Assembly: GCA_020721865.1 (NCBI GenBank)
Contig: DYLW01000005.1
Coordinates: forward strand, 23,091-87,090
Length of the DNA: 64,000 nucleotides
Reading direction: 5' to 3'
Source of the DNA: Leptospira biflexa
GTDB taxonomy: Bacteria > Spirochaetota > Leptospiria > Turneriellales > DYLW01
In this document: in pieces, positions 9,692-45,279 of the stretch
Layout: every line of letters starts with the position of its first letter
Position numbering within the stretch: position 1 is the stretch's first letter
Notes under the pieces: model-generated
Told to the model about the DNA's origin: nothing
Databases searched by the model: none
The model's input: only the letters and a program-made list of their open reading frames with translations
Translations under genes and position numbers: made by a program

Positions 9692-11201
9692 ATTTGTCCC
9701 TTTCCAGAAATTTTTCAAATGCGGAAAAAAGTGCCCGTCCTTTTTTTGCTATTTCATCCCTCTCTCCCGATGGGGAGGAATCATAAACCACACCGGCCCC
9801 GGCCTGGATATACAGACGGCGGTCTTTTAAAATCATGGTTCTCAATATAATGGCCGTGTCCATGTCTCCGTTAAAGGAAAAGTATCCCACACCGCCGGAA
9901 TAAATTCCGCGCGGAAAGGGTTCCAGTTCGGAGATAATCTGCATGGCACGGATTTTGGGAGCTCCGCTGACTGTTCCTGCTGGAAACGCCGCCAGAAATG
10001 CATCAAACGCATCCAGGTCTTCCCGCAATTCTCCCGTCACACTGGAGACAATGTGCATGACATGGCTGTATTTTTCTATCCGCATAAAATCCTCCACCCG
10101 GACACTGCCAAATTTTGAAATCCGTCCCACGTCATTGCGTCCCAGATCCACCAGCATGGTATGTTCCGCTCTTTCTTTTTCATCTGCCAGGAGCTTTGCC
10201 GCATACAGTTCATCTTCCGCCTGATTTTGTCCTCTCTGGATGGTTCCCGCTATGGGCCGCAGAGTGACTTTGCGGTTCTGGACTTTCACCAGAATTTCCG
10301 GAGAACTGCCAATGACCACATTCTCGCCGTAATTCAGAAAATACATATACGGGCTGGGATTGGTGGACCGCAGAAAACGGTACAGATAAAACGGGTCATG
10401 CAGGAATTCTGTGGAAAAACGGCGGGAAAGAACCACTTGGAAAATATCTCCGTCCGTAATATATTGCCTGGATTTATCCACCCAGGAAAAAAATTCTTCA
10501 TCGGAAACGGGACTTTCCCACTCCGGCTTCCGGCTTTCTGAGGGATGCCGTTTATTCTCGGATTCAAATTCCTGAATCCCCGCATCGGAACGCAGGGAGG
10601 AAAGAATGGCATTGATTTTTTCTCCCGCCATCCGGTAGAGATTCAAAGCAGACCCCTTGTCCCGGATGTATACATTTTCAATAATTTTTATTTCTCCCAA
10701 TACATGGTCAAAAAGGATCACTTCAGAAGGAATCACAAAGCCCAGATCATCCGCCCCCAGAGGATCCTCTTTTTTCATCCCCTGAATTTTCTCATAATAA
10801 TGGATAATATCATAGGCAAAAAACCCCACCGACCCGGAATAAAAACCGGAAAGTCTCTCTTCCGGATAATGCACAAACCCCTGCATGGATTCTTTCACCG
10901 CCTCCACCGGCAGTTGGGATGAGAGCACCTTACTTTCTCCGCCATTCATCGTCCGGGTATAGCGACCGTTTTTCCCGCTCACCACACAGTGAAAATCCAG
11001 ACCCAGGATACTGTAGCGTGCCCGGTTTTCTCCCCCTGCTACGGATTCCAAAAGAAAAGAGTACGGACGCTTATTTGCCCGAGTTTTTAAAAATACGCTT
11101 ACCGGGGTATCCAAATCCGGCAGAGAAGTCCCATAAACCGGAATCATATTATATTTTTCTGATAAAGAGATAAAAGTCGCTTCGTCCATGGAGAGTTGCA
11201 T
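9672..11201 (-). CDS. trpE: Anthranilate synthase component I
   Basis: Contains SFLLESVAGGENRARYS (the LLES feedback motif) and GTVSGAPKIRAMQII. The probable start is MQLSMDEATF at 11201. The track's 11306 start would overlap the divergent neighbour. Confidence 0.85.
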   Translation of the reverse strand: MQLSMDEATFISLSEKYNMIPVYGTSLPDLDTPVSVFLKTRANKRPYSFLLESVAGGENRARYSILGLDFHCVVSGKNGRYTRTMNGGESKVLSSQLPVEAVKESMQGFVHYPEERLSGFYSGSVGFFAYDIIHYYEKIQGMKKEDPLGADDLGFVIPSEVILFDHVLGEIKIIENVYIRDKGSALNLYRMAGEKINAILSSLRSDAGIQEFESENKRHPSESRKPEWESPVSDEEFFSWVDKSRQYITDGDIFQVVLSRRFSTEFLHDPFYLYRFLRSTNPSPYMYFLNYGENVVIGSSPEILVKVQNRKVTLRPIAGTIQRGQNQAEDELYAAKLLADEKERAEHTMLVDLGRNDVGRISKFGSVRVEDFMRIEKYSHVMHIVSSVTGELREDLDAFDAFLAAFPAGTVSGAPKIRAMQIISELEPFPRGIYSGGVGYFSFNGDMDTAIILRTMILKDRRLYIQAGAGVVYDSSPSGERDEIAKKGRALFSAFEKFLERDKYDIYSG

Positions 11202-11882: not shown

Positions 11883-11956
11883 GGGCCTATAGCTCAGTTG
11901 GTTAGAGCAACGGACTCATAATCCGTGGGTCCCAGGTTCAAGTCCTGGTGGGCCCA
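11883..11956 (+). tRNA. tRNA with anticodon CAT; elongator type, either Met or lysidine-modified Ile2
   Basis: A cloverleaf was folded by hand. The acceptor is GGGCCTA/TGGGCCC with discriminator A. The D arm is GCTC..GAGC. The anticodon stem is ACGGA/TCCGT with loop CTCATAA. The T arm is CCAGG-TTCAAGT-CCTGG. It is not an initiator (1:72 is paired). The C4:G69 and C5:G68 pairs resemble the E. coli tRNA-Ile2 TilS determinants. CCA is not encoded. Confidence 0.9.
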
Positions 11957-27313: not shown

Positions 27314-27814
27314 CTAACGAGATTTTGCAATCCCTGTCTGATTACATAAATTATCGATAATAATGCCGTTTCTTCTCAAAGCATCTGAAAATTCCAGCCA
27401 GTCACTGTCCACAGAATTAATGATGACCGCATCGCATTGACAGGCTCGGGATAAGGCAACAAACTTGCGGTCACTTCGATCAAAGTTTGCGAGATTTGAA
27501 TCCTGGGGAAAATCAACATATTCCCCCCCATCGCTTTGCTTAATATTTATGATTCTACATTTTTGAGTACCATACTCGTGATTGTACAGGAATTTAAAGA
27601 ACATATCGCCCACTCCGGGTTGACCAGAGTAATGGCAGTGCTTTTGGTATTCGTCCATTATTTCTCTATTCTCATCTAACAGTACAATTTCATCCTTCGT
27701 GGCGATTATTCTCTCCAGCCTGTTAATCGAATGCATTTCACATTCCAGGGAAGCCTGTTCAGAACGCCCATTGGCAACAACCAGAACATTCGTATCAATT
27801 ATATTATTTGTCAT
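27314..27814 (-). CDS. PIN-like nuclease-domain protein (putative effector of the two-gene cassette)
   Basis: 166 aa. All four PIN acidic positions fall in the expected contexts: IIDTNVLVV (D7), LLDENREI (E48), SDRKFVALSRA (D115) and NSVDSDWLEF (D136/D138). Its ATG lies inside the last codons of the upstream ATPase gene (11-nt overlap). Confidence 0.6.
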   Translation of the reverse strand: MTNNIIDTNVLVVANGRSEQASLECEMHSINRLERIIATKDEIVLLDENREIMDEYQKHCHYSGQPGVGDMFFKFLYNHEYGTQKCRIINIKQSDGGEYVDFPQDSNLANFDRSDRKFVALSRACQCDAVIINSVDSDWLEFSDALRRNGIIIDNLCNQTGIAKSR

Positions 27815-29177
27815 TTTCTGCGATTTTTTGATTTAGAATAGCTTTGCGGGTTTCAGCGATCTCAGTGAACTCATCGCCAAAAAAGTTTTTTGGCCAGTTC
27901 TTTATTTCTCCGTATTCCGATAACTCAAGTTGTTCTAATTTTGAAACGCCATTGGGTTTTTCAATGAAAAAGAGTGAAATTTTTTCGGGTGCCAGCGTTT
28001 TTTCGGCGAGTCTCCTTTGTAATCTTCGCAGGAGATGTTCACTATGGCTCTCGACCACAACCTGAATTTTTCTCATTTCTACTGCACTGATAATCACGTC
28101 CGCCAGACCACTTTGAACGGACGGATGCAAATGGATCTCCGGCTGTTCCAAAAGCAGGATGGACCCTTCGGGAACATAGAAGAGTTGTACTAAAACGGGT
28201 AATACCTGTGAGATACCAAACCCTGCATCAGTGATTAATACGTAATCATTTGAACCAGAAGTTTTTACTTTAACGCGATAAATATTGGTTCCCTGGCTGA
28301 TTGCTTCTACCTTAAAATCAACAATAAGAGATAATTCTTTAAGCCAGTGAGCTATGTATTCCGAAAAGATTTTTTTCTTCTTTCCGCGTCCAGTTCCTAT
28401 AGATAGCTTCTGGTTTGCTGCATCTGCGGCGAGAATGGCATCGACAACTCTTTCTCCCCTTCTGCCCACACCGGTGGGTCTTGCCCCTCCCCAGATATAT
28501 TGTCGCCTGGGGTAATCACGCAATGGACCCAAATGGTATATTTTATCGATGAGCTTTTCGTATTGCAATTCAATATCGGCAAGGAAGGACGCATTTTGAA
28601 AGTAGGTACGTGCCTGGTCAGGGAAAGCATAGGATTTCTGCGGTCCGGGAAGGCTCCATGGCCGTCCAGGATTGCGGATGAATGAAAAAGTCTTGTTTCC
28701 ATCTCCCAAATAATCCAGCTTGTATTCTTCATTTTTTTCAATACGCATAGAAAAGATGTCCTTCTCCAGGCTGTATTGAATTTCTGTACATAAAATCTTT
28801 TTCTCTGATTCCTGTACTCTGGCTTTCAATGCAAAATCTTTTCCGTGGAACAAATTGTTTTCTCCTTCATCCGATGGATTAGTGATACTTACTTCTTCAT
28901 CACTGGCCCAGTGTATTTCCCATGACAAAAAATCATCCTGGTTGGATTTGTGCTTTACTTCGGAAAAGGAACCGAGATTAACATATTTATCGGAATCACC
29001 AAAATCCAAGACAATACTTCTGTCTGTCGTTTCTTTGGTTTGCTTCAGAAGAAGCAGGAAATGAAGAATGGCACTTTTCCCCGAACTGTTGACGCCAAAT
29101 AAGCCGGATATTGGAGCTAAATCCAGATCTAATTCAGCCCATGATTTGAAATTTCGTATTGAAATTTTTTGAATCAT
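27804..29177 (-). CDS. ABC-type/OLD-family-like ATPase (AAA_15/AAA_21-like with DUF3696-like C-terminal domain)
   Basis: 457 aa. N-terminus MIQKISIRNFKSW..., Walker A GVNSSGKS (K34), signature-like DAGFGISQVLPVL, Walker B region ILLLEQPEIHLHP, H-loop VVVESHSEHLL, and C-terminal EYGEIKNWPKNFFGDEF. Family names are from memory and not confirmed by HMM. Confidence 0.7.
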   Translation of the reverse strand: MIQKISIRNFKSWAELDLDLAPISGLFGVNSSGKSAILHFLLLLKQTKETTDRSIVLDFGDSDKYVNLGSFSEVKHKSNQDDFLSWEIHWASDEEVSITNPSDEGENNLFHGKDFALKARVQESEKKILCTEIQYSLEKDIFSMRIEKNEEYKLDYLGDGNKTFSFIRNPGRPWSLPGPQKSYAFPDQARTYFQNASFLADIELQYEKLIDKIYHLGPLRDYPRRQYIWGGARPTGVGRRGERVVDAILAADAANQKLSIGTGRGKKKKIFSEYIAHWLKELSLIVDFKVEAISQGTNIYRVKVKTSGSNDYVLITDAGFGISQVLPVLVQLFYVPEGSILLLEQPEIHLHPSVQSGLADVIISAVEMRKIQVVVESHSEHLLRRLQRRLAEKTLAPEKISLFFIEKPNGVSKLEQLELSEYGEIKNWPKNFFGDEFTEIAETRKAILNQKIAENDK

Positions 29178-29319
29178 ACGTCAATGGAGGAAATAAAACG
29201 CAGCTGTACATTCATTTTTTATGTGGATCATTTGTACTCCAGATCCAAAATGGCCTCCAAACCGTTTTATCCAAATAAAAAAAAAGTTGGCAGCGGGTTT
29301 TAAAGAATAAGATTGAATT

Positions 29320-44094: not shown

Positions 44095-44132
44095 AAATCC
44101 GGATATGAACTCCGGATTTTCAAGGATCTATT
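44082..44132. repeat. Perfect 22-bp inverted repeat (hairpin with a 7-nt loop)
   Basis: AATAGATCCTTGAAAATCCGGA-TATGAAC-TCCGGATTTTCAAGGATCTATT was verified base by base. The left arm contains the dehydrogenase stop codon and the right arm ends at the start codon of the next gene. Confidence 0.95.
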
Positions 44133-45279
44133 GGTGAGCCAGAACGTAAAACGCCATCGTGAGCGGCAAAAACTGCAAGAAATGATCGATTATTTTCCCA
44201 TCACTGCCATTTTGGGTGCCCGGCAGGTGGGAAAATCCACTATGGCAAGAGAGCTGGACTGGAACCATTTCTTTGATATGGAAAATCCAGCGGATGCAAG
44301 ACTTCTGGAAAACCCGCAGCTTGCCCTGGAAAATTTACAGGGGTTGATTGTCATCGATGAGGTACAGTGGGTTCAGAATTTATTCCCTTATTTGTGGTAT
44401 CTGGTAGACCAGAAAAAGCAACAGAAATTTCTACTTTTGGGCAGTGCATCCGGAAATCTGATCAACCAAAGCTCTGAAAGCCTGGCCGGACGTATTGCTT
44501 ACCTCACTTTATCCGGTTTTTCCCGGGAGGACTTAACTTCGGAGCAAAAAAAAATGCACTGGATACGGGGTGGGTTTCCATCTTCGCTTTTGGCTCCGGA
44601 TGATGGCACCAGTTATCAATGGCGGGAAAATTACGTGAGAACATACCTTGAGAGAGATTTGCCCCAACTTGGGATACAGATTCCGGCTGGCACTCTCCGC
44701 CGTTTCTGGTTGATGTTGAGCCATTACCATGGTTCGGTGATTAATTATGCTGAGATTTCCCGGTCTTTGGGGATTAGCGATAAAATGATTCGATACTATC
44801 TGGATATCCTTTCTCAATCTTTTATGGTCAGGATAGTGGAACCCTGGTTTATCAATACATCAAAAAGAATTGTGAAATCTCCCAAAATATATCTTAGGGA
44901 TTCCGGAATATTTCATTATCTGCAGTCCATTCATTCAAAAGAAAATTTGCTGGTGAATCCCAAACTGGGTGCATCCTGGGAAGGTTATGTTCTGGAGGAA
45001 GCGAGGAAAATTATCCAGCAGGAGGAAATTTTTTTCTGGGCAACCCACGCTGGGGCAGAGCTGGATATGTTCTGGCAATGGAAAGGTAGAAATTTTGGTC
45101 TGGAGGTGAAATTTGCGGACGCTCCTGGTATGACCAAATCCCTGCATTCCGCCATGGAGGATCTGAAACTGGATTTTTGCTGGATTGTTTATCCGGGAGA
45201 AAAGAGTTATCTTGTTCATGAAAAAGTAAAAGTATTGCCATTGGAGCAATTGGCACAGATTGCCACACCGGATTACTGA
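44131..45279 (+). CDS. AAA+ ATPase of the COG1373 type (AAA_14 + DUF4143) with a PD-(D/E)xK-like C-terminal motif
   Basis: 382 aa. Walker A GARQVGKST, Walker B LIVIDEVQ, and a DUF4143-like central region. The C-terminus is AELDMFWQWKGRNFGLEVKF (D...ExK). The start is uncertain (TTG 44131 or GTG 44134). Confidence 0.75.
   Translation: MVSQNVKRHRERQKLQEMIDYFPITAILGARQVGKSTMARELDWNHFFDMENPADARLLENPQLALENLQGLIVIDEVQWVQNLFPYLWYLVDQKKQQKFLLLGSASGNLINQSSESLAGRIAYLTLSGFSREDLTSEQKKMHWIRGGFPSSLLAPDDGTSYQWRENYVRTYLERDLPQLGIQIPAGTLRRFWLMLSHYHGSVINYAEISRSLGISDKMIRYYLDILSQSFMVRIVEPWFINTSKRIVKSPKIYLRDSGIFHYLQSIHSKENLLVNPKLGASWEGYVLEEARKIIQQEEIFFWATHAGAELDMFWQWKGRNFGLEVKFADAPGMTKSLHSAMEDLKLDFCWIVYPGEKSYLVHEKVKVLPLEQLAQIATPDY

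Follow-up and report, generated by a model that had tools for sequence, protein, structure and literature searches.

What is encoded by a pair of overlapping genes, one for an ABC-type ATPase and the other for a small PIN-like protein, that lies among unrelated housekeeping genes of an uncultured spirochaete-like bacterium, and does this pair represent a new kind of anti-phage system? The question is raised by the locus at positions 27314-29177 of a 64,000-nucleotide stretch of DNA from a genome labeled Leptospira biflexa (GenBank assembly GCA_020721865.1, contig DYLW01000005.1, positions 23,091 to 87,090 of the forward strand); this whole stretch is hereafter called the window, and window coordinates are used throughout. 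The initial annotation of the locus, made from the sequence alone, proposed an uncharacterized anti-phage or abortive-infection system, placed it outside all named systems, and took a match to a named defense family as one of the results that would overturn this placement. As detailed below, such a match exists: the pair corresponds to HEC-03, a defense system that has already been described and validated in a homolog.

The cassette matches HEC-03 over the full length of both proteins

The cassette consists of two open reading frames (ORFs) on the minus strand, exactly as initially described. The upstream gene (27804..29177) encodes an ABC-type ATPase of 457 amino acids (aa), with an AAA_15/AAA_21 core and a C-terminal DUF3696 module, and the downstream gene (27314..27814) encodes a PIN-like protein of 166 aa, the presumed effector nuclease. 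The stop of the ATPase gene and the start of the PIN gene overlap by 11 nucleotides (nt; 27804..27814, minus strand), an arrangement that probably couples their translation.

Comparison with the PADLOC models identifies both proteins. The ATPase matches PDLC04148 (‘HEC-03B’) with an E-value of 5.2e-180 and 597 bits (residues 1-455, profile positions 1-456 of 458), and the small protein matches PDLC04147 (‘HEC-03A’) with an E-value of 7.8e-41 (residues 4-162, profile positions 3-156 of 159), which is its sole match in PADLOC. The second-best model for the ATPase is NsnB of the Menshen system (1.4e-64, 217 bits, over nearly the whole profile), followed by weaker matches to PDC-M55A, AriA (2.8e-31), HEC-01A, AbiLi, Old and GajA.

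HEC-03, or Hma-embedded candidate 3, is a cassette of an ABC ATPase and a VapC-like PIN protein that was found within Hma systems, although such cassettes are widespread regardless of Hma, and its ATPase is unrelated to VapB (Payne et al., bioRxiv 10.1101/2024.01.29.577857). According to the same study, the pair from Pseudomonas cichorii ATCC 10857 lowers plaquing by several logs for at least two phages in Escherichia coli MG1655 ΔRM, protection needs both genes, and the pair is toxic under induction with isopropyl β-D-1-thiogalactopyranoside (IPTG) and, hence, was expressed without IPTG. The ATPase of the window is 46% identical to its tested counterpart WP_025259138.1 (E-value 2e-132, over the 399 N-terminal aa of its sequence), and the small protein is 37% identical to WP_025259137.1 (1e-34). 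The tested genes are likewise adjacent, with the ATPase gene first (322707-324092 and 324079-324552).

From this evidence, together with the linkage and structural data described below, we put at about 0.85 the probability that the cassette represents HEC-03 in stand-alone form, an anti-phage system in which the ATPase would act as the sensor and regulator and the PIN nuclease as the effector. The locus thus represents an already named, database-listed system that is experimentally validated in a homolog, rather than a new kind of system, and it should be labeled HEC-03 (ABC ATPase + PIN). The claim of novelty falls because both proteins match a named defense family at full length. The assignment to the class of ATPase-nuclease systems that act against phages, perhaps by abortive infection, is borne out by the HEC-03 match and by the homolog that protects E. 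coli only when both genes are present. Novelty aside, the initial annotation thus described the locus accurately and read its function well. A literature search found no later mechanistic study, no published mechanism and no renaming of HEC-03.

The A/B labels of HEC-03 are reversed between the two sources: in the original paper, A denotes the ATPase and B the PIN protein, whereas in PADLOC-DB v2, A is the 159-aa PIN model and B the 458-aa ATPase model. This swap could confuse annotations, and the two proteins are referred to here by their folds.

The gene pair is conserved across phyla and recurs within Hma systems

In a scan that included one genome per species, at least 560 loci carry a gene related to that of the small protein; 80 loci were retrieved, with 79 scorable gene junctions. 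In each of these 80 independent loci, the gene directly upstream, in the same orientation, encodes an ATPase homolog (36-87% identity). The loci belong, among other phyla, to Planctomycetota, Chloroflexota, Latescibacterota, Cyanobacteria, Proteobacteria, Acidobacteriota and Bacteroidota; this constancy puts the pairing far beyond chance. The two genes overlap at 56 of the junctions (43 of these by 4 nt), another 22 are separated by gaps of 0-28 nt, and a single pair is separated by 260 nt.

In 13 of the 80 loci, the pair is embedded in an Hma system (HmaA, E-value 3.2e-291; HmaB and HmaC, E = 0, about 1,040-1,060 bits), an observation that independently reproduces the published ‘embedding’. 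The co-occurrence of the two genes, proposed initially as a check, is thus observed, with Hma as the one recurrent defense context. Besides Hma, the only cluster of neighboring genes that recurs in more than 3 of the 80 loci is a set of generic ABC-transporter ATPases. Relatives are also present on 12 plasmids, 6 of them conjugative and 4 mobilizable, and in 11 of the 12 the adjacent gene is annotated as a ‘DUF3696 domain-containing protein’. A phage origin of the cassette was considered as well and rejected, with zero matches among 50,697 phage records.

Two further gene contexts are of note. A conjugative plasmid of Aeromonas salmonicida, similar to pAsa9 (NZ_CP085535.1, locus L166:5611-8239), carries a distant HEC-03-like pair (33% identity) with a gene for an ‘RNA ligase family protein’ 4 nt downstream and AbiEii and Hok/Gef genes nearby. 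The presence of the ligase may point to RNA as the target, with a function in repair or immunity; an RNA ligase gene is not a recurrent neighbor in the 80 genomic loci. Separately, in Hma loci with an embedded HEC-03 cassette (L072:10576-13911 and others), the flanking HmaC ATPase (DUF499) contains an N-terminal Swt1-like HEPN domain (Pfam, 1.6e-38), so that, together with the PIN protein of the embedded HEC-03, a single Hma system would include two predicted RNase domains.

The small protein has a predicted PIN fold and near-invariant acidic residues

Searched on its own against Pfam and NCBIfam, the small protein of the window yields no PIN match and, indeed, no match of any kind. Among the 33 members of its family, 19 match the Pfam model PIN_3, the best with an E-value of 1.4e-5. 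The AlphaFold2 (AF2) model built from the alignment of these 33 sequences has a pLDDT (predicted local distance difference test) score of 94 and a predicted template modeling (pTM) score of 0.89, and in a Foldseek search of the Protein Data Bank (PDB), its seven best matches are all PIN-fold proteins, among them the minimal RNase P HARP, the PRORP-type protein-only RNase P of Thermococcus celer, FitB and VapC.

The canonical PIN site has the composition D-E-D-D. All the motifs initially noted in the small protein (IIDTNV, LLDEN, SDRKFVALS and SVDSDW) are present, and their acidic residues show little or no variation across 192 unique relatives: D7 is aspartate in 189 and glutamate in 3, D47 is retained in 191, D115 and D136 in all 192, and D138 in 186. 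In the AF2 model, D7 is located after strand 1, D47 at the end of strand 2, D115 at the start of the helix 113-124 and D136 after strand four (129-133), so that D7, D47, D115 and D136 occupy, in this predicted structure, the places of the PIN catalytic residues. The respective codons (minus strand) are located at 27794-27796 (D7, in agreement with the initial annotation), 27674-27676 (D47), 27470-27472 (D115) and 27407-27409 (D136), within a span (27407..27796) that also includes two family-specific elements. The latter, which are invariant and lie outside the generic PIN signature, are E55-Y56 (E55 is present in 192 of the 192 unique relatives) and G64-x-P-G-x-G-D70, represented by GQPGVGD in the window (27605-27625, minus strand). 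The PIN call, which had been made from the motifs alone, is thus upheld because three lines of evidence converge, namely the PIN_3 matches of the relatives, the predicted fold with its Foldseek matches, and the near-invariant acidic residues. Given that the HEC-03 PIN protein keeps these acidic residues, it is presumably the effector itself, a predicted metal-dependent nuclease and, by analogy with VapC and HARP, most likely an RNase.

The segment that contains E55-Y56 and GQPGVGD (residues 55-70, window 27605-27652) may form the interface with the ATPase or a substrate site. A search of PDB sequences with the PIN-family profile returned only chance-level matches, to a de novo TIM barrel and, through the GxPGVG stretch, to McrB, and these were dismissed as noise; the McrB match, weak and spurious, is to the P-loop of that protein.

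The similarity to VapC raises the possibility that the pair is chiefly a toxin-antitoxin (TA) or addiction module, in which a large ATPase ‘antitoxin’ would restrain a VapC-like PIN toxin and the module would stabilize the DNA that carries it. The closest solved folds do include the VapC and FitB toxins, HEC-03 is toxic on induction, the pair is found on conjugative plasmids near AbiEii and Hok/Gef modules, and the very title of AAA_21 in Pfam is ‘putative AbiEii toxin, Type IV TA system’. The upstream partner, however, is a 457-aa ABC ATPase and not a small DNA-binding VapB, phage protection by the homologous pair depends on both genes, and 13 of the 80 relatives reside within Hma defense systems; besides, TA behavior and abortive infection can coexist. 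A pure TA role is therefore possible but unlikely, and secondary to defense, because the partner is not VapB and defense has been demonstrated for the homolog.

The ATPase belongs to a DUF3696 group with an altered Walker B motif

The domain assignments initially proposed for the ATPase agree with the Pfam search: AAA_15 (6.2e-27), AAA_21 (2.2e-16) and DUF3696 (5.6e-10, residues 396-440), with weaker matches to AAA_23 and SMC_N. The AF2 model of the ATPase (pLDDT 77.7, pTM 0.81) includes low-confidence loops at residues 167-196 and 221-242, and its Foldseek matches, with E-values from 4e-12 to 1e-9, are to an SMC head (4.1e-12), PtuA of retron-IA, Rad50, GajA and OLD. At the sequence level, a search against the PDB found matches to OLD and GajA at the core motifs only and no solved close homolog.

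All the motifs listed in the initial annotation (ISIRNFKSW, GVNSSGKS, GFGISQ, ILLLEQPE, ESHSEH and NWPKNFFGDEF) are present, and their conservation was assessed over 30 homologs. The invariant residues of the Walker A motif, or P-loop (GVNSSGKS, 29073..29096, minus strand, as are all the features of this gene), are G28, N30, S31, G33 and K34, the latter with its codon at 29076-29078 as originally given. In the signature-like motif DAGFGISQ (28206..28229), where GxG replaces the canonical SGG, D317, G319, G321, S323 and Q324 are invariant; in the Walker B motif ILLLEQPE (residues 340-347, 28137..28160), E344, Q345, P346 and E347; and in the H-loop region ESHSEH (28035..28052), which aligns with ‘sTHS’ of OLD and includes H378, the entire stretch from E376 to H381, S377-H378 included. 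The DUF3696 module (residues 396-440, 27858..27992), where the PIN protein is proposed to dock, includes NWPKNFFGDE, with N427-W428-P429 and F432-F433-G434 invariant.

The Walker B motif deserves particular attention. In the HMMER alignment, LLLEQPE of the window is opposite IIEEPE of the Thermus OLD protein, in which the Walker B acid is E276, and this register places a glutamine, Gln345, at the catalytic-glutamate position of the HEC-03 ATPases, whereas ATPases of the OLD and GajA type retain the glutamate. By analogy with engineered E-to-Q variants of ABC ATPases, this residue suggests slow or absent ATP hydrolysis. NsnB of Menshen has ‘EN’ at the Walker B dyad and the identical change from SGG to GxG (PMC12065111). 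The group of DUF3696 ATPases as a whole may bind ATP and hydrolyze it poorly.

These shared features, along with the NsnB match at 1.4e-64 over nearly the full profile, could also be explained if the cassette were a reduced or degenerate Menshen system that retains an NsnB-like ATPase and an NsnC-like PIN protein and has lost the NsnA sensor. The two ATPases have in common the DUF3696 tail, the GxG signature and the lack of the catalytic glutamate in Walker B (EQ here, EN in NsnB), and the N-terminal domain of NsnC itself is PIN-like, with predicted binding to DUF3696. Nevertheless, the HEC-03 model is far ahead (597 against 217 bits), the small protein has no match to the NsnC model, and the partner of the ATPase is a separate 166-aa PIN protein with intact acidic residues, whereas NsnC is an inactive PIN domain fused to a nuclease. 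Furthermore, no NsnA gene with ParB/DUF262 adjoins the pair in the window, and none is recurrent in the 80 loci. Descent by reduction from Menshen is, accordingly, quite improbable.

The cassette is accessory and lineage-specific and lies among housekeeping genes

The contig that contains the window belongs to a metagenome-assembled genome (MAG; GCA_975320645.1), and the same sequence is present in the JGI sample 3300000227 and in the run SRR1559028. The gene order around the cassette is asd, diacylglycerol kinase, CitMHS permease, the cassette, pepA, MTAP, MlaEFD and flagellar genes, and the remainder of the window has a gene content of the same kind. In 80 other, more distant pepA loci, of which 10 keep the pepA-MTAP synteny, the cassette is missing; it is therefore accessory, as the initial annotation had surmised from its permease and pepA neighbors, and lineage-specific. 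An exact empty site could not be defined, given that the metagenomic relatives of pepA are too distant (at most 64% identity).

The composition of the cassette differs from that of its surroundings. Its GC content is 0.41 compared with 0.47 around it, but 14% of the windows of the same size are as AT-rich, so that GC content alone is weak evidence; the GC content at third codon positions (GC3) is more telling, at 0.39-0.41 for the cassette against 0.51-0.58 for the neighboring genes. As for insertion scars, there are no meaningful direct or inverted repeats flanking the cassette, no integrase and no nearby transfer RNA (tRNA) gene; the only RNA gene of the window is one tRNA-Met (11883-11956), about 15 kb from the cassette. 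The cassette is separated from the divergent pepA gene by an AT-rich intergenic region of 142 nt (29178..29319), which is presumed, from its position only, to contain the promoter. A sigma-70 consensus scan of this region found no promoter-like site, with a number of sites not above that in shuffled sequence, and the site counts from the promoter and terminator consensus scans overall did not exceed those in shuffled sequence either.

The closest relative, a cave MAG labeled Leptospira biflexa (locus L004, DYOA01000014.1), carries the cassette at the corresponding position, with an ATPase that is 87% identical. The PIN protein in this MAG is only 68% identical, and its gene has, besides a 1-nt deletion considered below, a 9-nt deletion and an earlier stop.

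That the cassette is instead a housekeeping pair for RNA processing or DNA repair, in which a RecF/SMC-like ATPase would act with a PIN nuclease without any link to conflict with mobile elements, is barely credible: the flanks in the window are all housekeeping genes, the position is kept in one sister MAG and the ATPase shows weak matches to RecF, Rad50 and SMC_N, but the RecF and Rad50 matches are far under the curated cut-offs, the pair is spread patchily over phyla, plasmids included, it is absent at pepA elsewhere and has a GC3 below that of its neighbors, some relatives are embedded in Hma systems, and a homolog defends against phage experimentally.

Several observations do weigh against the identification as a functional HEC-03 system. 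The identity to the tested pair is moderate (46% and 37%), the experimental support comes from the P. cichorii homolog only, and the host, a Leptospira-like MAG, is uncultured. The Foldseek E-values of the PIN-fold matches are weak (5e-3 to 7e-2, with TM-scores of 0.45-0.64), although the probabilities reach 0.98. No other defense gene and no Hma system were found within 10 kb on either side of the cassette or in the surveyed remainder of the window and, therefore, there is no guilt by association for this particular copy. Finally, the PIN gene of the cave MAG (10001-10488) carries a 1-nt deletion near codon 16, which may reflect either decay of the system in this lineage or an assembly error.

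The isolation of the cassette has an implication of its own. In an uncultured lineage that resembles spirochaetes, HEC-03 is also present on its own between core genes, outside any defense island, and discovery methods that are based on such islands miss lone cassettes like this one.

Elsewhere in the window, flagellar and metabolic genes surround an ATPase gene of the AAA_14/DUF4143 family (44131-45279), whose members are frequently carried by mobile or accessory DNA. Further along, the segment 46728-54474 encompasses four consecutive large ORFs (558, 547, 460 and 657-665 aa) that have no Pfam match in the precomputed annotation, encode uncharacterized proteins of the lineage and are interrupted solely by a riboflavin kinase gene.

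A potential mechanism and the apparent kinship with Menshen

The mode of action of HEC-03 might follow the logic of PARIS and Septu, in which an effector held by the ATPase is freed or activated upon infection, as summarized in PMC12065111. In the uninfected cell, dimers or higher oligomers of the ATPase would keep the PIN protein inactive via the C-terminal DUF3696 helices. A phage cue would then alter the ATP-bound state of the ATPase, with the consequent release or activation of the PIN nuclease. Once active, the nuclease would cut RNA and thereby stop phage production, probably at a cost to the growth of the host, that is, by growth arrest or abortive infection.

The proposed contact between the two proteins is modeled on Menshen, for which AlphaFold 3 predicts that the PIN-like domain at the N-terminus of NsnC sits between the two DUF3696 tails of the NsnB dimer (PMC12065111). 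Because the DUF3696 tail and an NsnB-like core (PADLOC, 1.4e-64) are common to both systems, the HEC-03 PIN protein probably docks on DUF3696 as NsnC is predicted to do.

A broader and more tentative scenario, with the odds against it, is that HEC-03 and Menshen derive from one ancestral ‘DUF3696 clamp’ module, in which a PIN domain is gripped by the paired C-terminal DUF3696 helices of an ABC ATPase with impaired hydrolysis. Under this scenario, HEC-03 would be the minimal form, with a live RNase effector gated by ATP binding rather than turnover, and in Menshen, the derived form, the PIN domain would have turned into an inert adaptor for other nucleases. The impairment of hydrolysis would follow from the Walker B dyad, E-Q in HEC-03 and E-N in NsnB, compared with the usual E-E or D-E. 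This link between HEC-03 and Menshen is stated in neither of the two published papers (Payne et al.; PMC12065111).

With the novelty of the system set aside, the interest of the locus lies in how HEC-03 senses phages, what its PIN nuclease targets and whether the apparent kinship with Menshen is genuine. The conserved glutamine of the Walker B motif, the DUF3696 tail, and the E55-Y56 and GQPGVGD elements offer concrete mutants and a testable structural model.

Comparison with known systems

The cassette combines features of several known systems. With VapBC and FitAB, it shares the PIN fold and the four acidic positions, which in the model lie in the canonical structural places. The differences are in the partner, a 457-aa ATPase as opposed to a VapB or FitA antitoxin, and in the PIN protein itself, which contains E55-Y56 and GQPGVGD and is too divergent to be recognized by the Pfam PIN models.

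The similarity to PARIS (AriA-AriB), Septu (PtuA-PtuB), Gabija (GajA-GajB) and OLD lies in the general design, an ABC ATPase of the AAA_15/AAA_21 type that controls a nuclease. The ATPase of the window has partial PADLOC matches to AriA, GajA and Old, and PtuA, GajA and OLD are among its top structural matches. The sequence similarity is limited to the core motifs, however, and the inserts and the C-terminus differ. The effector is also distinct, being a PIN protein rather than a TOPRIM or HNH nuclease, and neither a TOPRIM partner (as in AriB or the C-terminus of GajA) nor an HNH partner (as in PtuB) was detected with Pfam or PADLOC.

Menshen is closer. NsnB is the nearest other named ATPase, similar in the DUF3696 tail, the GxG signature and the absence of the catalytic glutamate from Walker B, and it too has a PIN-like partner. 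Unlike Menshen, the cassette lacks the NsnA sensor, with its ParB/DUF262 and DNA-binding domains, the flanking genes being the divergent pepA upstream and the CitMHS permease downstream. Moreover, the PIN domain of NsnC is inactive and fused to a C-terminal nuclease, whereas that of the window is a separate, single-domain protein that keeps its acidic residues.

Compared with HEC-03 as described, the copy in the window stands alone between housekeeping genes instead of being embedded in an Hma system, and its genes overlap by 11 nt instead of the usual 4 nt. The two proteins match both HEC-03 families at full length, and the gene order, the tight junction and the two folds are the same.

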